Under the pieces are notes generated by a model. The model had not been told where the DNA came from, made no database searches, and was given only the letters and a program-made list of their open reading frames with translations. From the sequence record SRR31156797_7364: a stretch of DNA of 35,722 nucleotides. One strand, 5' to 3'. Numbering within the stretch: the stretch's first letter is position 1; each line of letters opens with the position of its first letter. Below, piece after piece: positions 707 through 15,457 of this stretch. The translations under genes were made by a program, and so were the position numbers.

Positions 707-1591
707 TCAGGATAACAGCCAGGCGGCAGGGAGGGAATAGAGCGGAACATCGGCATCGAATCGACGTACCATGTCCTCGTTACAGACAACAAGACCCGCG
801 AGCAACGGTTTATCCAGCAGGGCCGTTAGATTTCGCATGTGGCGAAAATCATTCCTGGAGGGGTTTGTGGTCATTTTGCATTCAACGGCAATGAAGCCTT
901 GCGAGGTTTCCAGGAGCAAATCGACTTCTCTGCCGTCCAGTGTCCTCAGATGATATAGGCGGACGGGTAAGTCGGCGGTTTTCACTTGTTTGAAAACCTC
1001 TGCTTGCGACGATCCTCTTCATTATAGTCGGTATGGGTCAGTGCCGGCATGGCGCCCCAGTTCAGATAATATTCCCAGTGCTGTTTGGCGACGGCGTAAC
1101 GTTCGTTGATGGTAAAAATTTCTTCCAGATAGTCCCGAGGATCCTGTCGGGGATTCTCGGACAGCCACCGGATCAAACGGCAGGGACCCGCGGTTTCCGA
1201 CCAATCGGTGGTCATCAATTCGGGCAAGGTAAGCGGATACAATTCTTGAATAGCGGCCCTGCCGGCCAGAGATTCGCGGATACCCTGCAGGAGCATGATC
1301 CGGCTTGATCCCAGTAAAACATAGCGTACGTCAGGGTTCGAATCGTAACAAGCCTTGATGCTATCCATTAAGAAGGGGTAGCGATTGATCCAATCCTTGG
1401 CGGATAGACGCGAAAACTCAGGCCGTACCATGGGATCATCCATTGAAAGCAATAGATGATCATGAAAAACCCTGGATGCCAATGTGGTTTTCCCGGTCTG
1501 CCTGGCCCCGGTGATTACCAGGATCCTGCCCCGCCGTTTTTGATGAACCTGTACTATAATGTTTAGATATAAGCCTATTTTTTAATTTCAT
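707..1591 (-). pseudogene. AAA_14/DUF4143-type ATP-binding protein, degraded
   Basis: Starts MKLKNRLIS at 1591. The Walker A GRILVITGARQTGKTT (~1485-1530) is in another frame, so there is a frameshift. The Walker B (hhDE) appears deleted (RYP|FLMDS). LLGSS...ESLAGR...L.PL is retained. The C-terminal YHLRTLDGREVDLLLE...AVECK nuclease-like part is a separate ORF (707-985) after a large deletion. Confidence 0.8.
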
Positions 1592-1905
1592 AGTTTAGGT
1601 TTTACGTATATAAGCCGTAGTGTCAACCCATAAATCTCCTCCGAAGCTTTGCGCCACCGAACCGTCCCTTTTTTCGGAAAGACACACGATAAGTGGAAGT
1701 CGGCTTTGAATTGACATAAAGCAATGCCTCACATATACAAAGAGATCCTTGCTTTCCACAGGCATTTGTGTGGAAGTCAACTTTATTCGGTTCCGTGTTG
1801 GTGACCATTTGCCAATAAAAGGGATAGCCTGAGAGAACATCTGAAATCCATTCACGCGCTACACCAGCTATTAGGAAGGCACAATTTGAATGATTAGAAT
1901 ATGGG

Positions 1906-2871
1906 ATGATGTCCGATTCTGAGAATATTTCACCTGTTACGATTTGCCTGCTCAGCCACGGAAACCAAGAGGAAACTGCCCGTGCCGTGCGATCTGTCCG
2001 GCGCTTTGATTTGCCCGTCACGGTCGGGCTTACAGCAGGAAGCCTGGATTTGGATATCTTCAAAAATACCCAAATTCATCGGATTCCCTGGGAAGACAAC
2101 TTCGCCAGAATCCGAAATCTCCTGTTAGATCGAGTAGAGAGTCAATTTATTTTGTGGCTGGACAGTGATGAGGTCCTTTTTTCTTTCCCAGAGATGGATG
2201 TTGCTTTCTTTGAAAAGGATATATTCGGCACATATTGTCAAGAAAGTGAACGTTGGACGCCAAGGCTCCAGTTTCGATTTCATCGAAATATTCCGGGTGT
2301 TCATTGGATCGATCCTATCCACGAGAGGCTAACGGCTCATGGCCAACCTATTCTGGATGATTGGGGCTTTGTTCCCGGCATCCTGATTCGGCATTTCGGC
2401 TATGAAGACCCGGAGGTGCTCGAATCCAAAATGGTCAGAAACATGAAAATAGCCAAATCCGGGTTGGAGAAACACATGCCCACTTACGGCGATATTATTG
2501 CCGCAGCCAGAACCAAAACGCATATGGGCCGTTTCAATCCGATGCTGTGGCTAAAATGTTTCAAACACCCAGGCGCACAGTATTATGGACCAAAATTCGA
2601 CTTGCGGTTCGAACCGGCCGAAATGTTGTGTTCCTGTGGCTATACGGCACCGGCCGAATTTCTGCTAAAAAGGAATCCTCTTAATATACGTCTACATCTC
2701 GCTGTAATGGGCGCCCAATTGCGACGCTTGGGCGCGGTGGATCGAAAACGGCTTGAGTTTCTCCATGAATGCCTTTCAAATGGCTTCTTTGATCCGTATT
2801 ACGCCTGGCCAAAGGCGCTAATGGGTTTGTCAGAGCAAGGCCTTCTGGATTTCATTAAGAAGTCCGTTTAA
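1906..2871 (+). CDS. Glycosyltransferase family 2 (SunS/TPR-GT-like), with divergent C-terminal domain
   Basis: WEDNFARIRN, ILWLDSDE (DxD), HWIDPIHE, IRHFGY and SKMVRN match the WxxdFxxaRN / LDADE / IHE / HxGY / KxxRN pattern of this GT-A subfamily. Confidence 0.8.
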   Translation: MMSDSENISPVTICLLSHGNQEETARAVRSVRRFDLPVTVGLTAGSLDLDIFKNTQIHRIPWEDNFARIRNLLLDRVESQFILWLDSDEVLFSFPEMDVAFFEKDIFGTYCQESERWTPRLQFRFHRNIPGVHWIDPIHERLTAHGQPILDDWGFVPGILIRHFGYEDPEVLESKMVRNMKIAKSGLEKHMPTYGDIIAAARTKTHMGRFNPMLWLKCFKHPGAQYYGPKFDLRFEPAEMLCSCGYTAPAEFLLKRNPLNIRLHLAVMGAQLRRLGAVDRKRLEFLHECLSNGFFDPYYAWPKALMGLSEQGLLDFIKKSV

Positions 2872-2960
2872 AGATGTCGTTTTACCTGGGCACCTACCAT
2901 AGCCATAAGAAGAACGTAACATGAAAACCAACGGCAAATCTTGTTGATACGGAGGTTTGA

Positions 2961-3239
2961 ATGAATTTGTTTGAAGGGCGATTCCGCCGGATTGACGCAT
3001 ACGAATCTGGAACTTTTGAAGAGGATCTGTTTGTGATGAATGTTGAAACGCTGGATATCATGGGCTTGAACCCAACCGCGGCAGCGCTTTGGGAAGCGCT
3101 GAAGTGGCCCCAGTCGGTGGAGGATCTCACGGGTTTGCTCACCGAAGTATTCCCTGCGGAAAAAGAAGACGCTTTGAGAGCCCATGTTAGAGAGGTCGTG
3201 GAAACACTGTTATCCCGGAAACTCCTGGTAGAAATCTGA
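2961..3239 (+). CDS. PqqD family protein / stand-alone RiPP recognition element (RRE-1)
   Basis: 92 aa. LNPTAAALWEAL...VEDL..LL.E.F...V.E.VETLLSRKLL is the PqqD winged-helix pattern. GGAGG RBS at 2951-2955. Confidence 0.9.
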   Translation: MNLFEGRFRRIDAYESGTFEEDLFVMNVETLDIMGLNPTAAALWEALKWPQSVEDLTGLLTEVFPAEKEDALRAHVREVVETLLSRKLLVEI

Positions 3240-3240
3240 T

Positions 3241-3257
3241 GGTTTCGTTACGAAACC
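3241..3257. terminator. Short hairpin between converging RRE-1 and kinase genes
   Basis: GGTTTCG-tta-CGAAACC is a perfect 7-bp stem. There is no U-tract, so the function is uncertain. Confidence 0.35.
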
Positions 3258-3298
3258 GGCGTATAGATTGCGACTCAAACGGCAATAGACAAAGCCAC

Positions 3299-4162
3299 CT
3301 AAACCAAGGGGGAAATCGCCAGGGAGAAAGCACCTGCCAAGTCTCCCTCTCCCACTTCCAGTTCATAAATCTTGTTTTGGCGCCAGAGCGTCTCAACAAA
3401 GGGAAGAATTGCCAGTAGCCTATTCTGAATTTTAAAAGTATGGGCCAGGATTTTTCTTAGAACTGTCTCCCGATCGATAGGGATTCGCCGGGTGGACCCG
3501 CTCCGTCGAAGCAAATAGAGTGTTCTGACCGGCAGGCTGATGCCATAGGGAACCATTCTTTTTAGCGACCGGCCCAAAAGCACCCAATGATCGGATTTCC
3601 AGCCTTTTCCAAGACAGTACGGACCGGACTTTCCGAGGGCGGAGGCAAATGGCTCCGGTATTTCCGGTTTCTGGAGGCGCAGGCTGAGTCCCTGGGGAAA
3701 AGGGCGAACCGTAGCGTGAAAAGGCTCAACAGCGGTGCAATCATCGTTTATCACTGAAAAGCCTCTTTCCCAGGCGAGGGCTGCAAGTGAACTTTTTCCT
3801 GTTTGCGATCCGCCGCAGAACAGAATAGCCCCATTATTCACTACACAACTGGATGCATGCAAGACAGGATACGGACATTTTTGGAAAAAAGTCCATGGGA
3901 TTGCTGTAGCGAGAAAATGGGATATTTGTGAAGTATTGGGAATTGAAACCCTGGTCTTCCCCACGGACAAAAGGTAATCTGAGCCTTCAGGCAAGACGGA
4001 AATATTCCCCGGAAGACTGCGATCAACTTCAACTTTTTCTATTGTAAGCCCAAGTAGGTCAGCAGCCCGATGAAGCGAGGGGAAATGACAAACCTCCGCA
4101 ATGGTGCGGGTATCTTCCCATCCGAGGCGGTAACGGTGCATATCAATATTGCCAGAGGCCAT
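3299..4162 (-). CDS. HPr kinase-related (HprK-rel) P-loop peptide/serine kinase
   Basis: LHASSC (catalytic His), Walker A GGSQTGKS, INDD (DD pair), VRPFPQGLSLR. It lacks the N-terminal domain of true HprK. Confidence 0.85.
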   Translation of the reverse strand: MASGNIDMHRYRLGWEDTRTIAEVCHFPSLHRAADLLGLTIEKVEVDRSLPGNISVLPEGSDYLLSVGKTRVSIPNTSQISHFLATAIPWTFFQKCPYPVLHASSCVVNNGAILFCGGSQTGKSSLAALAWERGFSVINDDCTAVEPFHATVRPFPQGLSLRLQKPEIPEPFASALGKSGPYCLGKGWKSDHWVLLGRSLKRMVPYGISLPVRTLYLLRRSGSTRRIPIDRETVLRKILAHTFKIQNRLLAILPFVETLWRQNKIYELEVGEGDLAGAFSLAISPLV

Positions 4163-4185
4163 TTCAGAAAGGACAAATGAAGTCC

Positions 4186-4494
4186 TTATGTGTTCAATTT
4201 GTAATAATGCGCAATCAATCCTCGGGATTGAAGTGTTTTCAGAACCTCTTCAACCTGTCGTTCCAGTGTTTCCCTCGATTGTTCAGGAAAAGCCTCCACC
4301 AGAAGATCCGAGAGATCGTCGATGGTCTGTGGCCATTTGAGGGCTTCCCAAATGGCGGTCGCAGTGGAATTGAGAACGACCGTACCCCTGGTCTCCACAT
4401 GCATGACCATCAAATCCTGCTCAAACGCGCTCTGAAGAAAATCATCAATGCGCTGAAAGCGTTTTCTGCCTAGTTGTAATCCTTTTATTGACAT
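4186..4494 (-). CDS. PqqD family protein / RRE-2
   Basis: LNSTATAIWEALKWPQTIDDL...FP...VEEVLKTLQSRGLI. ATG 4494 is preceded by GGAGG (the ORF track used an upstream start at 4524). Confidence 0.9.
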   Translation of the reverse strand: MSIKGLQLGRKRFQRIDDFLQSAFEQDLMVMHVETRGTVVLNSTATAIWEALKWPQTIDDLSDLLVEAFPEQSRETLERQVEEVLKTLQSRGLIAHYYKLNT

Positions 4495-4604
4495 CCTACG
4501 CCTCCATCCGCGGAAGCATATCACCCAGGAAGTTCCACTAAAACCGATTGATCCGGTTCAGTGTGCTCCGGCAAATACAGAAGGTTTCATCTTAGACAAG
4601 GTTT

Positions 4605-4775
4605 TTATGAGGCATAGGTGAGATTGTCCCCTCCATCCAGCAAAAGCATCGCCGCCGGCGCTACGAAAGCGCAGGTTGCCAACTTCCTCAGAATCCTTCT
4701 GCGTTCCTCGTCTGGCATTGATTCATCCGGAACTTGTCCGCATCCCGTCTCGTTTTTTTTAACCGTTTCATCCAT
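4605..4775 (-). CDS. Putative RiPP precursor peptide, 56 aa: MDETVKKNETGCGQVPDESMPDEERRRILRKLATCAFVAPAAMLLLDGGDNLTYAS
   Basis: Hand-translated, ATG 4775 to TAA 4605. AAGGGAGGT RBS lies ~12 nt upstream. It fills the gap between the NTase and RRE-2 on the same strand. Acidic N-terminus, RRxIL motif, FVAP motif, C-terminal Ser. Confidence 0.75.
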   Translation of the reverse strand: MDETVKKNETGCGQVPDESMPDEERRRILRKLATCAFVAPAAMLLLDGGDNLTYAS

Positions 4776-4836
4776 TTCTTATGTGCTACCTCCCTTTTCT
4801 TCATCAATGAGCTACAAGTCCGGAGCGACAGCCTCT

Positions 4837-5715
4837 TTAATCTTCAGTAGGAATACTTTGCTCACAGACCTTTATGGTTATCCGCCTCAGAACCGTTTCC
4901 ATCCGTTCATTGGATTGAATGAGAAAATTCGTATCCAGTTCGGAAAGAAAAAGCCGATCCTGGGCAGTATTAACAAACGGAATAATACTCTTAAGGAGTT
5001 CATTTCCTGGCAATCTGAGGCAGACATTCTCCAGATAGGCTGTTTGGCTAATCGAAAAAAAGAAGCGAGGGACACGCACCAAGACGCCTTCGGATATCAT
5101 TTCAGCAGTCCCAGCAGCTGTTTCCGCCCAAGCGAGAAGGTCCACGCGTAATCCATTATCCGCGTGAGCACCTATGTGATAAGGTGATCTTTCCTCGAAA
5201 CGGAATCCCTGCCGTCTGAATGCCGACAGGACGACTGGGCGGTGACGTGCGAGGAACACAATATCAACATCGTGGTGTAAACGCGTTAATTTCCCTCTCA
5301 AGGCATCGTAAGCAATGCCGCCGGTAATAAAACACTCCAAATTGTCTTTTCGGATGATTTCGGCAACAGTTTCCGCCAAGGTCAAGACGGCAGCATTTCG
5401 ATATCGTCTGTACCAGTTTGAGTGTCCTAAAAGATCCTCAATTCTGTTGCGAAACGCATTCTCGATCAGGCCTGCCTTTATCAAAAGCTGATCATTAGGC
5501 CTCTTTTTCAGGTTTGTCAATTGGTGCTGTCTCACGGAAAATACGAAAAAAGCTTCTATTCTAACGGATTTAATTAATTCTATTCGCGCTCTTTTTTTTG
5601 GGTGCAGTATATAAAAAACAGACTGTCTGATCAAGAAATTACTCTCTGTCGATCCACGACACAGCAGACTAAAATTCTGGCGAATTTCGGGAACAGTAAA
5701 TGTACTTTCGATCAT
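4837..5715 (-). CDS. Nucleotidyltransferase (Pol-beta fold; ANT(2'')/Lnu/LicD-like domain) with N-terminal region of unknown function
   Basis: FITGGIAYDALRGKLTRLHHDVDIVF (GG + DxD) and a later RVDLL acidic strand. The start is reassigned to ATG 5715 (MIESTF), which overlaps the upstream ORF stop as ATGA. Confidence 0.75.
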   Translation of the reverse strand: MIESTFTVPEIRQNFSLLCRGSTESNFLIRQSVFYILHPKKRARIELIKSVRIEAFFVFSVRQHQLTNLKKRPNDQLLIKAGLIENAFRNRIEDLLGHSNWYRRYRNAAVLTLAETVAEIIRKDNLECFITGGIAYDALRGKLTRLHHDVDIVFLARHRPVVLSAFRRQGFRFEERSPYHIGAHADNGLRVDLLAWAETAAGTAEMISEGVLVRVPRFFFSISQTAYLENVCLRLPGNELLKSIIPFVNTAQDRLFLSELDTNFLIQSNERMETVLRRITIKVCEQSIPTED

Positions 5716-5870
5716 TCCTGGTATTCTTCCTGGTTTTCCACAGCGGCTTTCAAGTTGGAGTCGACAAAATTCACCGGGTCTTCTGCTGCAACAAATGATG
5801 GAAATCCCAACAGTATGACCATAGCCACAAAACCTAACAACAGATTCCTTCTTGTTTTTCTTGCTCCCAT
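5712..5870 (-). CDS. 52-aa small ORF with signal peptide: MGARKTRRNLLLGFVAMVILLGFPSFVAA|EDPVNFVDSNLKAAVENQEEYQE (possibly a truncated secreted LRR protein)
   Basis: GGAGG RBS just upstream of ATG 5870. Basic n-region, hydrophobic h-region and VAA cleavage site. The stop overlaps the NTase start (ATGA). Not in the ORF track (<60 aa). Confidence 0.6.
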   Translation of the reverse strand: MGARKTRRNLLLGFVAMVILLGFPSFVAAEDPVNFVDSNLKAAVENQEEYQE

Positions 5871-6269
5871 TTCTTCCCTCCGATATTAGATGTTTTCGTA
5901 AAGACTCAAAAAGCCTACGATTCCGAACAACGCCTGTGCCCACTCTCTGCTGTTCACCTCCTTTTAATTCCATGGAATTCATATCTTAAATCAGAAATAT
6001 CAAGACCGGTAACTTCTCATAATCGGTTTTCCCAGGTTTCCAATCTCACCAGGTTTTTCAACAAGCACTGTACCGCTTTTGATATCGCGACATGGCTTTA
6101 ATCTAACCATTTGATATATTGTTAAATGTCGGCCATATCCATACTCTTCCCTGGGAAGATTTTTCTTTCGTTGATCCTGTTCAGGCCATAATGGCCAATA
6201 ATTGGATAAATGTCTTTCCATTTATGCCACTTTCATATAAGATTTTTCACTATTACTGGATCACCTGAA

Positions 6270-6931
6270 ATGGGACCTGACATGGAAAACAAGAATGGCT
6301 TCGCGAAAGTCCTGGCCTTCTTTCAGGCCCAACAGGCCGGTGTTCCGGGCGATGCTGACTACAATGCCGCCTTTTGTCATATCTTGTCTGAAGCAGCTTC
6401 CGCCGAGGAGGCCTCCATCTGGCGGTTGGATAATGAAGACAGGTTGCACATGGTTCAGGGTACAAATGTTTCTCAAGAAGAGATTTCAGCGTGACCATTC
6501 GTGAAGGTGAAGGTATCACCGGAGCCGCTGTTTTGTCCCGGCGGACCATTGCAGTCTCTGACGCATGGGTACATCCCCAACACGATCGACGGATAGATAA
6601 ACGGATTGATTTTCGGACCGTTGCGATGATTTCAACACCCATAATTTATGGTGCACCCTATGGAGCGGTGAACATTCTGAATCACCGTACGGGTGGGCCA
6701 TTTCCCGCGCAATGGGAGGAACGAATGTCGGCAGTGGGCATCCTGTATGCTTCGACGCTGGCGGCATCGGGCCGATTGGTTCCCTATAAGTTACCCTGGG
6801 AAGCGGGGCGCTGGAATTTGAGCGCAGCAGCCCGTCAGCTCGGGATTCCGAGAAAGACCTTTTCATATCGTTTAAAAAAATGGGGATCGTCCAATGATTT
6901 TCTTTATCGCGAAATACTCGACCTTCCGTAA
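6270..6931 (+). pseudogene. GAF-domain / Fis-HTH (sigma54-activator-type) regulator remnant
   Basis: The GAF domain is split by a frameshift at ~6485 (ASIWRLD..., GEGITG...V.DA..HP.H...ID..I.F.T...I..P...GAVNILN). It runs straight into WNLSAAARQLGIPRKTFSYRLKKWG (Fis HTH) with no AAA domain between. Confidence 0.75.
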
Positions 6932-6962
6932 ATCAGTTCTTTGACGATTCAGCTAAAGAAGT

Positions 6963-6988
6963 GGGCGATCATATGATCGCCCTTTTTT
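6963..6988 (+). repeat. Second copy of the fhs terminator hairpin (direct repeat of 592-617)
   Basis: GGGCGATCaTATGATCGCCCTTTTTT versus GGGCGATCtTATGATCGCCCTTTTTT: 25/26 identical. Confidence 0.85.
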
Positions 6989-7010
6989 ATGGTCTGAAGA
7001 TAAATTTTTG

Positions 7011-7040
7011 TCTCGTCCATGCTCCGCGTGGCAACGAAGA
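7011..7040. repeat. Degenerate REP-like palindrome
   Basis: tctcgtccatgctccgcgtggcaacgaaga resembles the widespread CTCGTTCCCACGCTCCGCGTGGGAACG-type extragenic palindrome. Confidence 0.35.
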
Positions 7041-7098
7041 AACTTCTCTAACCGCCGTGATTTTCCCCCCGTTGAAGTGCTCAAGGTTACAAGCGAAC

Positions 7099-7323
7099 AT
7101 GGATCGGTTAATTTTCAATTCCCGACTTCCGGCCACTTTCAAAGAATGTGATCGAGCAGTCAAAGAAGCTGTTGCTAAGGATGCTTGGGAAGACGTTGGT
7201 GTCATTGCCCAAACAGATCCGACTGCAAAGCGGCCTGCCGCGTACTATAAGTCTTATGAAACGGAAGTGACACTTTACGGTGAAAGCTATAGAGCAGTGG
7301 TCATTCACTCCAGCGCACACGAT
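7099..7323 (+). mobile_element. IS1634-family transposase internal fragment
   Basis: F.SRLPATFKEC...V..A...W...G......RPAA.Y...E.EVTLYG..YRAVVIHSSAHD is typical of the IS1634 central region. No ends or full DDE domain are present. Confidence 0.7.
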
Positions 7324-7407
7324 GAAAAAATATTCATTGGACTCGCTTTTTTAGCCCTGTCTCATGTAATTTCAAATTCGAAGTTGGTTTCAAGCCTTTT
7401 CATCTCT

Positions 7408-7485
7408 CAGCTGACCATCTTGAAACGCATGAGGACTGCAATAAGACTCTACGAAAATTTGGGGTTCAAGGAAATCTCCCTTTAG
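7408..7485 (+). pseudogene. GNAT acetyltransferase C-terminal remnant
   Basis: LTILKRMRTAIRLYENLGFKEI matches the GNAT motif B (A..LY..LGF). Confidence 0.5.
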
Positions 7486-7996: not shown

Positions 7997-8632
7997 CTAC
8001 TTCCCCATCATCGATTTTGCCGTTTGTATTGCTGATCCCGCGTCAGAGGCATAACCGTCCGCTTTTGCATCCTTAGCAAACTCCGGCGTCACAGGTGCGC
8101 CCCCAACCAGAATCTTACAATTTTCATTTCCGCCGGCGTTCCTGATAAATTCAATCGTCTCAATTACGTTTGGAAGGGTTATGGTAAGGAGTGCGGAGAT
8201 TCCTACGAACTCAGGCGTTTCTCGCTGTATACATTCCAGAAATTTCTCCTTGGGAACATCAATACCCAGATCCACCACATCGAATCCAGCGCCTTTGAAC
8301 ATCATACCAACCAAATTTTTCCCCACATCATGCAAATCGTCTTTGACCGTACCTAAGACTAATTTTCCCATGGAGGTCATGGATTTCCCCACAATATACG
8401 GTTCAATAATCCCCATACCCTCTTTCATGGCACGTGCAGCTACCATCATTTCCGGAAGAAACAGCTCATGCTGTGAAAAGCGAAGCCCTACCTCTTCCAT
8501 GGCTGAATTCATCCCCTTTGAAATAATTTCCTGCGGTGGAATGTTTTCATCCAGTGCTTTTTGAGTATGAATTCGGGTCTCAGGCGATTTTCCTTTCAGT
8601 ATGCTCTGATAAAGAAGTTCCAAAATTTCCAT
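7997..8632 (-). CDS. Corrinoid (B12-binding) methyl-carrier protein, MttC/MtbC-like
   Basis: B12 cap F...ELFLPEMMVAARAMK, plus GTVKDDLHDVGKNLV (DxHxxG), SALLT and VGGAPVT. Confidence 0.95.
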   Translation of the reverse strand: MEILELLYQSILKGKSPETRIHTQKALDENIPPQEIISKGMNSAMEEVGLRFSQHELFLPEMMVAARAMKEGMGIIEPYIVGKSMTSMGKLVLGTVKDDLHDVGKNLVGMMFKGAGFDVVDLGIDVPKEKFLECIQRETPEFVGISALLTITLPNVIETIEFIRNAGGNENCKILVGGAPVTPEFAKDAKADGYASDAGSAIQTAKSMMGK

Positions 8633-8655
8633 TATGCTCTCCCGTCCGAAATAGA

Positions 8656-9513
8656 CTAATGGTTAAAAATAGTTCTGTAAGATTCAAGGAAGTTTACGGC
8701 ATAAGGGTCGAGGTTGGTCATTGCATCCGCAGCCATTACGGTTTCTACCATTTCCGTTGTGTTGGGATTAAGAATAACGGCGCTCAACCCCGCAGAAACG
8801 GCCATCGCCACAAAAGTCCGATTAAACACGTTGCGCATGGGCATGCCAAAACTCACATTGCTCAAGCCGATAATGGTGGATAACCCCTGATCTGAAAGCG
8901 CTTTAATACATTTCAGGCATTCCAGGGCGGCGGTTGGTTCAGCCCCTATAGCCATCGCCATACAGTCCAATACCAAATCTTCTTTGTTAAACCCTACTGT
9001 ATCCGCATATGCTAAAATCCGATCCGCCACTTCAAGCCGGTCCTCAGCCTTGACGGAAACCCCCCTTTCATCATTCAGCATCACCACCAAAGCAACGGGC
9101 CGGTCAACAAAGGCATCCATTAAAGGCTTGTATGAAATGTCTTCCCCGGTACAAGAGCCCACCAAAGGCTTGTAAGGATATATTTCCCGAGCGGCAATCA
9201 GGGCTTCAGGTCGGGACGAATCGATATACAGGGGAAGAGAGGTGATTTCTTCCAATTCCTGTACGGCCCGGACCAGAATATTTTTTTCATCAATTCCATG
9301 CATCCCCACATTGACCCCTAAAACATTAGCACCTGCTGCTTCCTGTTCCCTGGCCAGCGATACTAGAAAGGAAAGATCTCCCTTCATGATGCTTTCTTGT
9401 ATCTTGGGTTTACCCGTAGGATTGATTCGCTCTCCGATCCGAACCGCAGGCAACCCGGGGCCGAAATTCAGCAAATTGTCTTTGGATTCGATTTCGGTCA
9501 TAATCTTAAACAC
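8656..9513 (-). CDS. Methylcorrinoid:tetrahydrofolate methyltransferase (pterin-binding, MetH/AcsE-like)
   Basis: IGERINPTGK, PLYIDSS, GLSNVSFGMP.R...N..F...A..AGL. Confidence 0.9.
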   Translation of the reverse strand: MFKIMTEIESKDNLLNFGPGLPAVRIGERINPTGKPKIQESIMKGDLSFLVSLAREQEAAGANVLGVNVGMHGIDEKNILVRAVQELEEITSLPLYIDSSRPEALIAAREIYPYKPLVGSCTGEDISYKPLMDAFVDRPVALVVMLNDERGVSVKAEDRLEVADRILAYADTVGFNKEDLVLDCMAMAIGAEPTAALECLKCIKALSDQGLSTIIGLSNVSFGMPMRNVFNRTFVAMAVSAGLSAVILNPNTTEMVETVMAADAMTNLDPYAVNFLESYRTIFNH

Positions 9514-9533
9514 TCCTGCTTTACCCAGGGGGG

Positions 9534-10595
9534 TTAATACCCGCCAACTTCCCTGGCATATCGTAACATCTCAATTACAGAATCAGGATGACATCCACTG
9601 TGGATTGAATTACTGTCGGACAAAATATAACGTCCACCCGCCTTGGCCTGATTCATACAACGCTGCACTTCAGCCCGGACCTTTTCGAGATTATTTTGGC
9701 ACAGGATTTCTCCGCAATCCACATTTCCGACGAGGATTAACCGGGAGCCGTAGTCTTTTTTAACCTGGGCAAGATCGACGCCTGCGGTCGGTTCAAGAGA
9801 GTGCACGCCCGCCATCCCCGATTCCAAGGCTGTTTCGAGAACGGGCGTGATAAAACCGTCGGAATGCCATATGACCGGAATTCCCGCTCTTTCCACAATG
9901 TGACGATAGCAGGGCGTCACAAGTTCGTTAAATTCCTTTGGAGGAATGAAAGTACTCCCCTTAAACGCCACATCGTCTCCCATCAAAATGAAATCAGCCC
10001 CAAGTTCCGCTCCATGTCTGGCAACCTCGGCAAACCATTTCGTTCTTTTCCACAGCAATCGATTAATGAATTCCCTGTCATCCATATAGGTGTACAAGAA
10101 ATGTTCAAATCCCATGCTTTCCATTGTCAACCCAAAAGGCCCGGTGTGTGTCGTCAGCGCCCAAGCCTTATCGGGGTGCCTGCTCATGGCTTGCTTTGTC
10201 GCCACGGGATTGGACCTGTCCTCCAGCTTTAGTTCGGGCACATAGCGATCAATATCCTCCTCTGATCGAATCACGCCGCCAACATATGACCCCCTTTTCC
10301 ACATTCGCCCGAATTCATCAATACCGTCCCAGCCAGCATAAGTGCCGCCGGAGGTCTGCATTTCTTTCGGAATATCATTTTTTAAACCGGCCCCCAATGG
10401 TACGCCATTACACCAATTTTGCGAATAGAGGTGGTAAACGTCAAAACCAAGGGTGTTAAACACGTCTTCCATTGAACGAGTCCCAAGTTTCTTCACAAAA
10501 TTTGAGTCGATTCCGAATGTCAATAGCGGAACGCGATCGGGGATCTGTCCGCTCAGCACTGCCGATACACGTTCTTTTGATGTCATTTTCCCCAT
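9534..10595 (-). CDS. Uroporphyrinogen decarboxylase-fold methyltransferase (MtaA/CmuA-like, putative substrate:corrinoid MT)
   Basis: MTSKERV..V....PDRVP, GDDVAF, WHSDG, GNVD, GGRYILS..NSIH. GGAGG precedes ATG 10595. Adjacent to the corrinoid protein and MT2. Confidence 0.85.
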   Translation of the reverse strand: MGKMTSKERVSAVLSGQIPDRVPLLTFGIDSNFVKKLGTRSMEDVFNTLGFDVYHLYSQNWCNGVPLGAGLKNDIPKEMQTSGGTYAGWDGIDEFGRMWKRGSYVGGVIRSEEDIDRYVPELKLEDRSNPVATKQAMSRHPDKAWALTTHTGPFGLTMESMGFEHFLYTYMDDREFINRLLWKRTKWFAEVARHGAELGADFILMGDDVAFKGSTFIPPKEFNELVTPCYRHIVERAGIPVIWHSDGFITPVLETALESGMAGVHSLEPTAGVDLAQVKKDYGSRLILVGNVDCGEILCQNNLEKVRAEVQRCMNQAKAGGRYILSDSNSIHSGCHPDSVIEMLRYAREVGGY

Positions 10596-10632
10596 TGTTT
10601 TCCTCCCATGCGCCAAAAGGTGCGGCAATGCT

Positions 10633-11415
10633 TCATTGCTTTGCGACGCCGGATCCAAGATAGGCACTAATCACCTGCGAATCGTTAAGGACATCTTGAG
10701 GTTCTCCTTCGGCCAGTTTGTGACCAAAGTTCAGCACGACGATTCTGTCTGCAAGATCGGCCACCATCTGCATATCATGTTCAACCCATATCATCGTGAC
10801 TCCGATTTCATACTTGATTCTCAGGATGAAGCGGGCTAGATCTTCCTTTTCCTGACGATTCATGCCGGCGGAAGGCTCGTCCAGAAGCAGGATTTGCGGT
10901 TCCATGGCCAAAGCCCTACCCAGGCCGATGATCTTTTGAAGACCATAGGAAAGACTCAGCGCATCGGCCTTGCGATATTTCTCAAGTTCAAAAAATTCCA
11001 GCACCTCTTCAACGGCTTCACGACTCTCTATTTCTTCCCGCTTTGTCCGTCCCCAGAACAAGCCGTTTGACACGGCGCCGGATCCGATTTTTAAATGACG
11101 ACCCACCAGAAGATTCTCCAGGACCGTCATATGCTGAAACAATTCGTTATGTTGAAAAGTGCGGGCAATGCCGGCCTCAGCAACTTCATGTGCCCTTAAC
11201 CCGCCGATATCCTTATTTTCAAGCAAGACATGCCCTGCGGTGGGCGGATATATGCCGCTGATGCAATTGAGGAGACTGGTTTTACCTGCACCGTTGGGGC
11301 CGATAAGGGCCAACAGCCCTCCTTTATAAGAATTGAGAGAGATATCGGTTAGAATCTGCAAACCTCTCACTTGAAAATCAACCGAATCCAAACACAGATG
11401 AATCGTTTCAGCCAT
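10633..11415 (-). CDS. Liv-type ABC transporter ATP-binding subunit (LivG-like)
   Basis: GPNGAGKT, IARTFQ, LLLDEPSAG, VEHDM, AYLG. Confidence 0.92.
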   Translation of the reverse strand: MAETIHLCLDSVDFQVRGLQILTDISLNSYKGGLLALIGPNGAGKTSLLNCISGIYPPTAGHVLLENKDIGGLRAHEVAEAGIARTFQHNELFQHMTVLENLLVGRHLKIGSGAVSNGLFWGRTKREEIESREAVEEVLEFFELEKYRKADALSLSYGLQKIIGLGRALAMEPQILLLDEPSAGMNRQEKEDLARFILRIKYEIGVTMIWVEHDMQMVADLADRIVVLNFGHKLAEGEPQDVLNDSQVISAYLGSGVAKQ

Positions 11416-12220
11416 ACCATCTCCTGGACCGCCGATATTGCTTCACATCGCGGTAGCTTTTCTGTAAGTCCCGGTCTCCCTGACCTAAATAGAATTCTTG
11501 AATGTCCTGATGATTTTTCAACTTCTCGGAATCTCCCGCAAACACAATGCGGCCGTTTTCCATGATGTAGCCAAACTCTGCAATTTCAAGGGCGGCCACC
11601 GCATTTTGTTCAACCAAAAGAATCGTCACGCCCTGCTCGTCTCGGACCACATTCAGAAGGTTCAGCAATTCGGTTACAATCAATGGCGCAAGGCCCAATG
11701 ACAATTCATCCACCAATAAAAGGATTGGCCCGCAAAGTATGGCGGATGACAGCGCCAGCATTTGGCGTTCTCCACCACTCAGATAGCCTCCCAGGCGATG
11801 CTTCAAATTTTTCAAGACGGGAAAATAGGTATAGACCTGGTGAAGCAACTCTTTTCGGCTCAGACTTCCACCGGTAAGCGGCGTACATACATCCAGATTC
11901 TCCTCTACCGTCAGATTTTCAAATAACTTATCGCGCTCCGGCACCAGAAGTACGCCCTTCGTGCTGATGACGTGGGGTGGCCTGTTTTGAAGGCTTTCCC
12001 CCATGAATTCAATTCTGCCCTCCGATACCTTAGCGTCGTCGATCCCTAAGAATCCGGATATGGCCCTTAGGGTTGTGGTCTTTCCCGCCCCGTTCACCCC
12101 TAAAACGGCAACGATCTGATGTTGCCTTACCTGGAGTGAGACGCCCTGTATGGCAGTGGAGACATTGTGATAAACCACCTCCAACTTCTCCACATTCAGA
12201 AGAGGACCTCCTTTGTTCAT
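11408..12220 (-). CDS. Liv-type ABC transporter ATP-binding subunit (LivF-like)
   Basis: GVNGAGKTT, LSGGERQM, DELSLGLAP, VEQNA, EFYLG. Confidence 0.92.
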   Translation of the reverse strand: MNKGGPLLNVEKLEVVYHNVSTAIQGVSLQVRQHQIVAVLGVNGAGKTTTLRAISGFLGIDDAKVSEGRIEFMGESLQNRPPHVISTKGVLLVPERDKLFENLTVEENLDVCTPLTGGSLSRKELLHQVYTYFPVLKNLKHRLGGYLSGGERQMLALSSAILCGPILLLVDELSLGLAPLIVTELLNLLNVVRDEQGVTILLVEQNAVAALEIAEFGYIMENGRIVFAGDSEKLKNHQDIQEFYLGQGDRDLQKSYRDVKQYRRSRRWYG

Positions 12221-12224
12221 GCGA

Positions 12225-13286
12225 CTACCTCCCCACAGCTTTGTACTTAAAGGGCCACAAAAGAAAGTAATCCCTCAAGCGCTGCCATATTCCTACGAGC
12301 CCTCCGGGCTCCAATACAAGAAAGACGATCATGATGAGCCCGAAACTGCTATATTTTACCGCAAACATATAGGTGCTCAAACGGGCTGGTACGGATAGAA
12401 GGTCTACGGACGCGTCTATCAAGTAAGGTAGAATCACAATAAAGATCGTGCCCATTACTGCCCCAAGAATAGAACCCAAACCCCCTATGCAAATCATGGC
12501 AATGAACTCCATGGTCATAAAGAGGGAAAAAGCCTCAACCGAAACAAATCCTCTGTAATATGCAAATAGGCAGCCGGTGATACTGGTCAAAACCGAACTT
12601 ATAACAAAGGCGATCAGCTTGTACCGAGCGACCTTGATACCGAATGCCTCCGCAGCCACATCCCTGCCCCGAATGGCCATCCAGGCCCTTCCCGTCTTTG
12701 ATCGGACCAAATTGAGCGCAAACAAAATCACAAGAAAGTCCATGATCAACAGGAAGTAATACCAAAGTCGGGCATCTTCTATGATCAAAGGACCGATCTG
12801 TGGCGGGTCCACAAGAATACCCGTGGCAAAACCCCTTTGGGTTTCATATTCAGCCCCCAAATAGATTACGATAAAATGGAGGCTGAGTGTACTCAGCGCC
12901 AAATAAAGGCCTTTCAACCGTAAAGATGGAAGACCGAAAATAAGACCCAGAATTGCGCCCATGAGCCCGGATGCCGGCAGGGTTACCAGGAAAGGGGCGT
13001 TCATTTCTTTAAAAAGGATTGCCGTGGTGAATGCGCCCGCAGCCACCAAGCCGGCATGACCTAAAGAAATCTGACCTGCATAACCCGTAAGCAACATTAA
13101 GGCCACCGCGCCTATCAATGCTAAGAAAACCTGAACGGCTAAATCAATGAGAAATGCCGACGCAACCAACGGAAAAAATACAACGGCGGCAATCAGCAGG
13201 AAGAAGCAGATATAACGGCTTCGGGTCTCAATCAAGCACAAATCTTCAAAGTAGTTTGTTTTGTAGTAGCCGCTAGCGAAGGCCAT
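12225..13286 (-). CDS. Liv-type ABC transporter permease (LivM-like)
   Basis: GYAGQISLGHA, LRLKGLYLAL, GRAWMAIR.RD.AA...GI, GGLGS, EPGGL. Confidence 0.9.
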   Translation of the reverse strand: MAFASGYYKTNYFEDLCLIETRSRYICFFLLIAAVVFFPLVASAFLIDLAVQVFLALIGAVALMLLTGYAGQISLGHAGLVAAGAFTTAILFKEMNAPFLVTLPASGLMGAILGLIFGLPSLRLKGLYLALSTLSLHFIVIYLGAEYETQRGFATGILVDPPQIGPLIIEDARLWYYFLLIMDFLVILFALNLVRSKTGRAWMAIRGRDVAAEAFGIKVARYKLIAFVISSVLTSITGCLFAYYRGFVSVEAFSLFMTMEFIAMICIGGLGSILGAVMGTIFIVILPYLIDASVDLLSVPARLSTYMFAVKYSSFGLIMIVFLVLEPGGLVGIWQRLRDYFLLWPFKYKAVGR

Positions 13287-13288
13287 TT

Positions 13289-14161
13289 TTATACCCTTTC
13301 GAGTTCTTCTTTTGTTCCGAAAAGTCCCCACGGCCGGATCAAAAGCATCCCGAGCAACACCACGAAAGGCGCCACTTCGCTGGCCTGCGGACTGAGATAG
13401 TTGATGGCCAGGATCTCCACCAGCGCCACAATAAACGCTGCGGGAATAACTCCTGCCAAGCTGTCCAGGCCCGCAACCACCACCACTGGAAAAGCCTTTA
13501 GTCCGATGTGGAACATTCCGGGATTCAGACCGGAATCACAGGCTTGAATCATTCCGGCCGCCCCGGCACTAAACGACGCCAGTGCCCATGAAACAGCGTA
13601 ATATCTGTGGAGTTTGATGCCTCGCTGTGAAGCGAACAGAGGATTTTCCCCGACTGCGCGCATCCTGAGCCCCCAACGGGTAAATTTGAGACCCGTAAAC
13701 AGTGCTGCATAGAGCACCACGAAACCGAAAACGGAAATAAGACCGAATGTGGAGACGACCGCCCCCTCCATCAGAGTGTGTGACGTGTTCTCAATTCCAA
13801 GGTATTGCAGAGGATACCAATCCTGTGAAGTCCAGATCAAAGTGGTCAGGCCCCGCAGAAGAATTCCCATGGCAATGGTAACGAGGACAGCAGCAAAAGC
13901 AGACTCTCCAACCATGAATTTCATCAGGAACTGATAGATGATGAGGCCTAACACCAAGCTCATTACAACGGCTAAAACAAATGCGATGAATGGCTGCGGG
14001 CCGAGGCCTACCGCAACGGTAAAAAGAAAGTATGCCCCAAGACTCATGATTTCGCCATGTGCGAGATTCAGAACGCGGCTTGCCCGGTATATGAGAACAT
14101 ATCCGCAACAGATCAGGCAATACAGCGAACCCAGTACAACAATATTGATAATGACTTGCAT
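13289..14161 (-). CDS. Liv-type ABC transporter permease (LivH-like)
   Basis: GYVLIYRASRVLNLAHGE, G..MRA..EN, GLDS..G, RPWGLFG. ATG 14161 has a GGAG RBS. Confidence 0.9.
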   Translation of the reverse strand: MQVIINIVVLGSLYCLICCGYVLIYRASRVLNLAHGEIMSLGAYFLFTVAVGLGPQPFIAFVLAVVMSLVLGLIIYQFLMKFMVGESAFAAVLVTIAMGILLRGLTTLIWTSQDWYPLQYLGIENTSHTLMEGAVVSTFGLISVFGFVVLYAALFTGLKFTRWGLRMRAVGENPLFASQRGIKLHRYYAVSWALASFSAGAAGMIQACDSGLNPGMFHIGLKAFPVVVVAGLDSLAGVIPAAFIVALVEILAINYLSPQASEVAPFVVLLGMLLIRPWGLFGTKEELERV

Positions 14162-14231
14162 AACCAAACTCCATGGGCCTAACACACTAAAAAGTTCTCG
14201 GTCGATTCCGTTTTCGCCCCTCATCAAGAGG

Positions 14232-14258
14232 GGGACTTCACCAAAGCGATGAAATCCC
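14232..14258 (-). terminator. Intercistronic stem-loop downstream of the SBP gene
   Basis: Minus strand GGGAUUUCA...UGAAGUCCC, a 9-bp stem with one G-U pair. The position is typical of structures that raise SBP mRNA relative to the permeases. Confidence 0.5.
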
Positions 14259-14281
14259 TTTATCCTGTTGAAGAAAGAAAT

Positions 14282-15457
14282 TTATTTCACTTCAAGAGGC
14301 GTCCAGTCTTTCACGGTGACAATTTTGTTTTCAGCGGAGTCCCACCTGTACACTCTGTAATAGTTGATGGTCCTGAAATGGTTTCCCTTTGTCCATACCA
14401 GAGACCCGCCTCTCAGTCCTTGGGTCTCTGCTTTGACTTCATTCATGGCAGCGGTTACTTTTTCAGACGTCGGAGGCCACGATACTTTTTTAAGAATTTC
14501 TTCAAGCACCATTGCCGCAATCCACCCCTCCACAAGCTTTGTATATGGATAAATGGTTTTTTCTTTCAAACTGGCTGCTTTGATGACTTTGTGAATGTCC
14601 AGACCATCTGTGAAAAAGGCATTGGTTCCGAAAACATAAAAATTATCGTCTTTCAAACGAGCAAGTTCTTCTTCAGCCTGGATGTGAGAAAATGCCAGAT
14701 ATTTCCCTTTCCATCCTAGTTTTCGCAAAGCTTCCAATGTCTTTACCTCGGTCACCCAGGGTGCCCAGGAATAGACCCAGTTTGCGCCGGAGTTTTTCAA
14801 CTTGGTGGCAAAGGGTGTATAATCAGGGGTCGGAGGCGGAATGGCTTCCTTATCGGTCACCTTGATGCCCATGGTCTTTGCAAGCTCTTCCGCAAAATCG
14901 ATTTCTCCACGTGAAACGGGGATATTCATGGCAACCAGCCCAAGGTTAATGGGGCCTTTACTCTCCTTTTCGATAAATGACAGGGCAAATCGGCTGTCAT
15001 ACTTTGCGGCAAAGCCTGTCGAGCAGAATTGCATCGGGTCCGCGTTTGGCGGGTACACTTCTTTTGGACAAACGGAGCCCGCAAAAAAAATCGGCACCTT
15101 ATACCGCTTGGCAACCTTGATCATCGGTGCAAACGTGCTCGAAAGAGCCGCGTTCATTAATAGGATGACTTTGTCCTGGGTAACGAATTTTTTTGCCTGG
15201 GCCGCTGCTTTTGAGGGTTGTGCGGCATTGTCCTGTATGAGGACCTTTACCGGATGCCCGTTAATCCCGCCCCTGGCATTCACCTCTTTGAAATACACAT
15301 CAAAGGCATCCTTTATGGGTGCATAGATTCCTGAACCTCGGCCTGTCACGGCAACGCTGAAACCAACCACGTACGGATCTTCCGCCAAAGCAGGCGAAAC
15401 GAAGAAAACAACGAAAGTTACACACGCCAAAATTCCTGCCAAAAACTTTCTTTTCAT
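14282..15457 (-). CDS. Liv-type ABC transporter substrate-binding protein
   Basis: Signal peptide MKRKFLAGIL...ALA|E, plus NARGGINGHPV....DN...P. Confidence 0.9.
   Translation of the reverse strand: MKRKFLAGILACVTFVVFFVSPALAEDPYVVGFSVAVTGRGSGIYAPIKDAFDVYFKEVNARGGINGHPVKVLIQDNAAQPSKAAAQAKKFVTQDKVILLMNAALSSTFAPMIKVAKRYKVPIFFAGSVCPKEVYPPNADPMQFCSTGFAAKYDSRFALSFIEKESKGPINLGLVAMNIPVSRGEIDFAEELAKTMGIKVTDKEAIPPPTPDYTPFATKLKNSGANWVYSWAPWVTEVKTLEALRKLGWKGKYLAFSHIQAEEELARLKDDNFYVFGTNAFFTDGLDIHKVIKAASLKEKTIYPYTKLVEGWIAAMVLEEILKKVSWPPTSEKVTAAMNEVKAETQGLRGGSLVWTKGNHFRTINYYRVYRWDSAENKIVTVKDWTPLEVK

Follow-up and report, generated by a model that had tools for sequence, protein, structure and literature searches.

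Linear polyphosphorylated peptides (LPP), described in Bacillota from lppA-K-B-S-D-N clusters (Popov 2026, Nat Commun; text of PMC13381572), are the closest known system to the cassette analysed here, which lies in a window of 35,722 nucleotides (the whole stretch of DNA analysed, sequence record SRR31156797_7364); they take the place of the lasso peptides that an earlier reading, made from the sequence only, had used as its reference. Both the LPP clusters and the window cassette have a discrete RRE (LppB being the best PDB match of the window protein PqqD1) and an HprK-like kinase, with a nucleotidyltransferase as a tentative further common element; both lack a cyclase, and in both the peptide has a conserved leader with an aromatic-x-x-Pro motif and a variable C-terminus. 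Moreover, the end of the LPP leader (I-x-F-E-T) resembles the [IL]-T-[YF]-A of the window family, and the acceptor Ser3 of LppA, as given in the text of PMC13381572, corresponds to Ser3 of two long-tailed homologs. In contrast, the dedicated SpI peptidase and the MsbA-like exporter of LPP were not found among the 53 scanned window ORFs, and from the LPP leader, YxxPxVLxHQxIxFETxxS, the window family keeps only FxxP and [IL]-T-[YF]-A, with F for Y and HQ absent. The window leader also differs in carrying a twin-arginine box and a hydrophobic stretch, the core has 1-3 residues in most window-family members compared with 45 in LppA, and the predicted cut leaves F37 at -19, three positions farther than the Tyr at -16 in LppA. 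Furthermore, the window cassette has two paralogous RREs in convergent operons and a GT2 glycosyltransferase in two of three loci, and its nucleotidyltransferase is nearer to PF10706, unlike that of LPP. The cassette appears to work in an LPP-like way but is not a formal LPP member, having neither the SpI peptidase, nor the exporter, nor the leader consensus.

Phosphorylated lasso peptides (paeninodin with PadeK, pseudomycoidin with PsmK/PsmN, and Bsf) likewise combine an RRE with an HPr-kinase homolog of the same catalytic motif, an adjoining nucleotidyltransferase and a Ser acceptor, which is the C-terminal Ser for paeninodin-type kinases (available text of PMC8498205) and Ser3 in BsfA (available text of PMC10368454). 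However, the window has no cyclase and no B2 among its scanned ORFs, no ring-forming Asp/Glu in the peptide and no [YW]xxPxL. An Asp/Glu at core positions 7-9 is absent from the window peptide, whose core would be 1-2 residues long, and such a Glu occurs in homolog P0016 alone; the window peptide is not a lasso peptide. The HPr-rel-A system (TIGR04352 kinase, TIGR04353 PqqD) is similar in joining a PqqD, an HprK-related kinase and a nucleotidyltransferase without a core RiPP enzyme, but the window scores far under the cut-offs (23 vs. 200 bits for TIGR04352, 22.6 vs. 35 bits for TIGR04353), and its cassette is not HPr-rel-A. Fosfazinomycin FzmZ, described in the text of a preprint (PMC13622209), sets a precedent: this scaffold peptide gives a product made from its last residue alone, in a system that also has an RRE, kinases and a nucleotidyltransferase and lacks a dedicated peptidase. 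No published description of a Tat-leader RRE precursor was found in the literature searched, which takes in few subscription papers, and the word 'tat' is absent from six supplementary files of the LPP paper (PMC13381572).

The peptide gene and its cassette

The overlooked small gene claimed in the sequence-only reading is real (Table 1), as confirmed by its homologs and by a sequence check: the minus-strand frame gives 56 residues identical to those quoted, and the plus-strand reading carries stops. The claimed ribosome-binding site was also found; a distance of 12 nt to the ATG is rather long against the usual norm. The position of the gene upstream of a PqqD and a kinase on one strand proved right as well (PF05402, E = 1.9e-15; TIGR04352, E = 3.3e-5, the latter far under the 200-bit cut-off). 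The search for homologs proposed in the same reading was successful, and a codon comparison with the ortholog at the metagenome locus L002 found nine differing codons in a 23-codon core, seven of them synonymous (third-position bias, P = 0.008). The antisense frame with common wobble positions (a 177-aa plus-strand ORF at 4618) showed six synonymous changes vs. two; as this is nearly as good, the synonymous-bias test alone cannot settle the strand, which is set by the homologs, the ribosome-binding site and the stop shared with L002. The 177-aa ORF, without a Pfam match, was rejected as the true gene. Positions 1500-7000 of the window were covered with zero differences in one contig of one DNA run, which may be the source.

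Table 1. Features of the cassette, with positions in the window
Feature	Position	Strand	Basis or remark
56-aa precursor-like peptide	4605..4775	- (4775→4605)	Homology, conservation and anatomy; predicted cut site
Shine-Dalgarno-like AAGGGAGGT	4788..4796	-	Ends 12 nt 5' of the peptide ATG
GT2 glycosyltransferase	1906..2871	+	PDB matches; present in L002, other gene in L003
PqqD2	2961..3239	+	Close paralog, ~49% identical to PqqD1; present in L002 and L003
HprK-like kinase	3299..4162	-	BsfK motif spacing; weak PEPCK/HPrK-type fold
PqqD1, stand-alone RRE	4186..4494	-	PF05402; PDB matches LppB (9x8z) and TbiB1
Nucleotidyltransferase	4837..5982	-	PF10706, E = 2e-10; PF14907, E = 8e-4, weak

The minus strand holds, in order, the nucleotidyltransferase, the peptide, PqqD1 and the kinase, on which GT2 and PqqD2 converge from the plus strand; PqqD1 has an ATG at 4494 with GGAGG 6 nt 5' of it, and the ORF tool begins at GTG 4524. 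The same order was found at L002 (peptide→PqqD→kinase←PqqD←GT2), and a further locus, L003, starts within the first PqqD and continues with kinase←PqqD←another gene in place of GT2. This gene (L003 1569-2798, minus strand) encodes a protein of 408 aa or more that looks secreted and has no Pfam match, and it lies upstream of PqqD2 in the GT2 position, so that the slot is variable. Moreover, four of six further close peptides match PqqD-subfamily members in source and exact longest-contig size (1485, 6347, 1843 and 10699), the contig of 10699 also matching a kinase. The peptide gene is linked to the PqqD/kinase pair; beyond the window, the linkage to PqqD comes from two short contigs and from exact contig-size and source matches as a proxy, and none of 14 contig sizes from the wider family matched those of contigs bearing PqqD-subfamily genes. 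The Pfam scan, which took in 53 window ORFs, with smaller and most antisense ORFs outside it, found no lasso cyclase, B2, C39, S24/S26 (SpI) peptidase or MsbA-like exporter, and the ABC genes near the cassette are those of a branched-chain amino-acid importer only.

Kinase residues H102, G117, G122-K123-S124 and D140-D141 show the exact BsfK spacing in 8/8 sequences, as taken from the available text of PMC10368454, according to which the one Gly that is changed is dispensable in BsfK. In fold searches the kinase matched PEPCK folds weakly (E = 0.02; Z = 7.3, rmsd 5.2, 250 aligned), and a genome scan with the kinase found one distant lasso-like locus. GT2 is probably of a protein- or peptide-directed type, its best PDB matches being GmaR (E = 0.0016), then 7msk and SunS (E = 0.08-0.19). 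The nucleotidyltransferase is nearest, at low identity, to ANT(2'')/Lnu enzymes, and thus closer to antibiotic-modifying enzymes than to PF14907; its catalytic domain lies within the last ~190 codons, the start of the ORF is only tentative, and the L002 and L003 contigs stop short of its position. A sigma-70-like site (10/12) was seen at 5491-5520 on the minus strand, within this ORF and just ahead of the catalytic domain; such sites are not above chance in number (5 seen vs. 6.8 expected).

A 52-aa minus-strand ORF at 5712-5870, without a Pfam match, codes for a twin-arginine-like signal peptide and a brief tail, the latter presumably akin to the cap seen in internalin-like repeat proteins. 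Its stop codon shares bases with an ATG lying in the reading frame of the nucleotidyltransferase ORF, and its product may be a secreted protein cut short. Two copies (592-617 and 6963-6988, 96% identical) of a 26-nt palindrome resembling a terminator bracket the whole 6.4-kb cassette and may mark an insertion with duplication. Broken genes lie on both sides (707-1591 on the minus strand, 6210-6931 and 6961-7485 on the plus strand), comprising AAA_14/DUF4143 ATPase pieces, a split GAF/HTH_8 regulator and a weak IS1634-transposase-like remnant. Adjoining the cassette on the minus strand is a demethylation-type operon (7997-15457) with genes for a corrinoid protein, a pterin-binding and a URO-D-family methyltransferase and a branched-chain ABC importer, and the gene content (FTHFS, corrinoid and pterin methyltransferases, HGD-D) suggests that the host is an anaerobe.

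Homologs, leader anatomy and the RRE motif

A word search with the peptide gave three candidates, all homologous (E = 1e-21 to 6e-10), and a profile built from these and the window peptide yielded 24 matches among 1.84 billion proteins: 16 peptides of 45-89 aa, a 124-aa double-leader protein, a 206-aa protein with a similar segment and six long proteins, three of which were inspected and are unrelated repeat proteins. The 124-aa protein (P0020) carries the leader twice in tandem and is perhaps two neighbouring precursor genes read as one. Counts over the 16 peptides omit the frameshifted P0019, P0029 with its divergent tail, the near-duplicates P0013 and P0037-P0042, and the two longer proteins. 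The L002 ortholog (L002 1-246) is frameshifted, being 22 nt shorter after the AP-A-A codons, with the rest of the cassette otherwise intact; its displaced frame reads D-N-I-S-Y-A-S-stop, with Ser and stop codons unlike those of the window, and the frameshift is either a natural loss or an assembly error. In viral contigs, none of 87 pattern matches was confirmed, and tblastn of plasmids with P0001, P0021, P0027 and P0032 found no credible homolog; plasmid matches to the kinase and PqqD sit in lasso-type clusters. The best Bradyrhizobium match was rejected as spurious. Finally, the profile found three matches (E ~3e-4), two with internal stops, in 301 genomes of the phylum holding the distant lasso-like kinase locus, and the 30 protein-atlas clusters nearest to the peptide are unnamed small proteins, the named ones, at 0.86-0.88, being mere leads.

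In Tat signals, as outlined in the available text of PMC7317946, an RR precedes an h-region, the helix is broken 12-17 residues past the RR, and cleavage takes place at small residues. The window peptide runs from a variable acidic n-region through a PDxERRxILxKLA twin-arginine box, a hydrophobic stretch with F37-x-x-P40 and a polar DGGDNLTYA to its S56 tail, and the pattern over the 16 peptides is an acidic variable start, P-D-x-E-R-R-[RKQ]-[ILV]-[LI]-K, a hydrophobic part with a central Pro and a D-G-x-x-N-x-x-x-[AG] end. RR is present in 16/16, partly by construction, as the alignment was anchored on it; the Pro lies 14 residues past its second Arg, the consensus-F position is hydrophobic in 16/16, and the stop falls 31-34 residues after RR in 13/16. 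As in Tat signal peptides, there is an RR n-region, an h-region with a helix-breaking Pro and a polar c-region with a small-residue end, and, as in formate_TAT mini-proteins (TIGR02811), the whole is a small, stand-alone protein. In contrast to both, the family has E-R-R-x-[ILV]-[LI]-K for S-R-R-x-F-L-K (E and I/L/V stand where the consensus has S and F, with S/T or F never at those positions), an acidic c-region and almost no passenger, and its neighbours are RiPP-type enzymes, whereas those of formate_TAT are formate dehydrogenase. Matches to TIGR02811 were weak (12/19 aligned members, and 1/19 for TIGR01409), the best (E = 0.0029) remaining far below the cut-off. Judged by its residues, the whole peptide appears to have the anatomy of a Tat signal with a signal-peptidase-type end and a predicted cut after A55.

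Conservation in the close homologs reaches T-Y-[AG] and ends there, being followed by S, GTT, Y, GD or, in two homologs, a related 23-residue G-R-S-G… tail after the same leader. The stretch DGGDNLTYAS, which the sequence-only reading took as the core, is instead the conserved end of the leader, with variation only past T-Y-[AG]. Its suggested release after GG, and with it a double-glycine leader RiPP, was discarded, as GG is missing in the wider family and no C39 transporter occurs among the 53 scanned window ORFs, and a lasso-like cut after T53-Y54 fared no better, with no B2 or cyclase in the same set; of the two Cys pointed out, close homologs keep C35 but not C12. [TS]-Y is common to 8/8 close homologs, which differ in their last residue; in the wider family GG, T, Y and C are gone, but a terminal hydroxyl is still there, as is A/G just before the predicted cut (-1). 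S, T or Y appears among the last two residues in 14/16 peptides (14/17 with P0029), an enrichment with a binomial P of 5e-8, kinship ignored. Ser and Thr are frequent after signal-peptide cuts in general. A cut after T-Y-A would set Ser at +3 in both long-tailed members, as in LppA and BsfA.

The proposal that FVAP is the RRE site is plausible, FxxP being present in 8/8 close homologs and the pocket residues fitting it. In a fixed register, F at Pro-3 was found in 1/10 wider-family peptides; Y or W at this position occurs in no short member, and neither does the HQ motif. Hydrophobic substitutions occur in YxxP (PMC12710340); the main text of that paper contains neither FxxP nor 'twin', and its supplements may list such motifs. 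Both window PqqD proteins exceed the PF05402 cut-off, and the two paralog types split in a tree without strong support (67/79). The best PDB match of PqqD1, 9x8z (E = 8e-4), is LppB, in which N33 fixes the Pro kink and D70 binds the Tyr hydroxyl (as given in the text of PMC13381572). In an alignment read by eye, N33 corresponds to N42 of PqqD1, an Asn invariant in 22/22 rows, and D70 to Q80, a position with Gln in 10/11 PqqD1-type rows and Asp in 0/22. This Asp-to-Gln pocket change would fit the replacement of Tyr by Phe in the peptide motif.

Weighing the readings of the peptide

We lean towards reading the peptide as an LPP-like phosphorylation precursor, nearly all of it a leader that doubles as a Tat-type export signal, a reading we hold to be somewhat probable. 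Its observed part is the gene, its conservation, the PqqD/kinase linkage, the intact kinase motif and the boundary between conserved and variable residues. In this scheme PqqD1 would dock on FxxP and hand the chain over to the HprK-like kinase for phosphorylation of a Ser/Thr just past the leader (S56 in the window, S3 in both long-tailed relatives). Further decoration of the phosphopeptide may come from the nucleotidyltransferase and GT2, and during Tat export the cut after T-Y-A would be made by a housekeeping signal peptidase I. S56 would then be the sole core residue left, a C-terminal Ser as for paeninodin-type kinases. The L002 gene order, the contig matches, the LppB match, the pocket residues, the BsfK spacing and the Tat anatomy argue for this reading, as do the nearly constant distance from RR to the end, the terminal S/T/Y and the Ser at +3 in the long members. 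It is weakened by the wider family (the rarity of F at Pro-3 and the lack of contig matches), by F37 at -19, by a Tat box without S/T or F and Tat matches far below cut-off, and by the Y, Y and GD endings of three close homologs, which have no Ser/Thr past the predicted cut, since Tyr is not accepted by LppK (text of PMC13381572) or BsfK (text of PMC10368454). Further points against it are that the window has no SpI or MsbA-like exporter, that the L002 copy is frameshifted, that the nucleotidyltransferase is more like antibiotic-modifying enzymes, and that the peptide folded alone was predicted, at low confidence (pTM 0.30), as a single helix over 22-49, whereas RRE binding requires an extended chain.

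The constancy of [TS]-Y beside a varying last residue would also suit a substrate left uncut after TYA, which is modified on T53/Y54 (or C35) and persists whole as a membrane-anchored phospho- or glycopeptide, or else is released at GG. An invariant C35 in the close homologs, a GT2 weakly like SunS-type S-glycosyltransferases and a cassette encoding no peptidase among the scanned ORFs point the same way, but we consider this unlikely, given that the wider family loses GG, T, Y and C while keeping the -1 A/G and the terminal hydroxyl, that the window has no C39 transporter and that L003 is without GT2. A one-residue core is hard to picture as a product, the tail varies in identity (S, Y, GD, GTT) and the cassette has two RRE paralogs for one peptide, all of which would favour a leader-only adaptor or decoy that tethers the RRE and the kinase to the membrane or the Tat translocon, or titrates them, the true substrates being other Tat-leader proteins from elsewhere in the genome. 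This seems distinctly unlikely in view of the related 23-residue tail on the same leader in two homologs, the enriched terminal S/T/Y, and the L002 ortholog, which retains Ser-stop in a shifted frame with another Ser codon.

It is very unlikely that the peptide is what remains of the signal peptide of a secreted protein now lost, or of a long precursor that has eroded, with its function gone: the stop is held 31-34 residues past RR in 13/16 divergent homologs, the all-length profile search (24 matches) turned up the 124-aa tandem and the 206-aa protein but no large secreted protein that carries this leader, and there is a synonymous bias in the comparison with L002. Such decay would nevertheless agree with the broken genes flanking the cassette (707-1591 and 6210-7485), the second truncated signal-peptide ORF (5712-5870) and the frameshifted L002 copy. 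Finally, a lasso precursor, with a B2 peptidase encoded elsewhere cutting it after T53-Y54, is highly improbable. The lasso-type RRE and kinase, the Thr two positions ahead of Ala and the Glu that P0016 would carry at core position 8 speak for it, but the window core would be Ala-Ser, with the ring acceptor absent, P0003 is without Asp/Glu at 7-9, and neither the scanned ORFs of the window nor the short L002 and L003 contigs yielded a B2 or a cyclase.

Cassettes of PqqD, HprK and nucleotidyltransferase genes in which neither a precursor nor a peptidase can be seen are difficult to make sense of, and the window gives a small candidate substrate with a specific prediction, namely a phosphate on S56 and a cut after A55. 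Special to the window are the near-absent core, the FxxP motif with a matching change in the RRE pocket and the paired RRE paralogs. If the reading as an LPP-like precursor is true, LPP chemistry would reach past its Bacillota design, with one leader used both to recruit enzymes and for general export, and FxxP paired with a Gln-for-Asp pocket would join the known RRE recognition codes. It is possible, if doubtful, that the peptide represents a RiPP class in which the leader is both RRE address and working Tat signal and leaves as product one modified amino acid or a di- or tripeptide, for example a glycosylated or nucleotidylated phosphoserine, which the housekeeping signal peptidase sets free outside the cell. 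The variable tail of 1-3 residues (S, Y, GD, GTT, SP, TP) would then set the product, and a one-residue core would rank among the smallest RiPP products.
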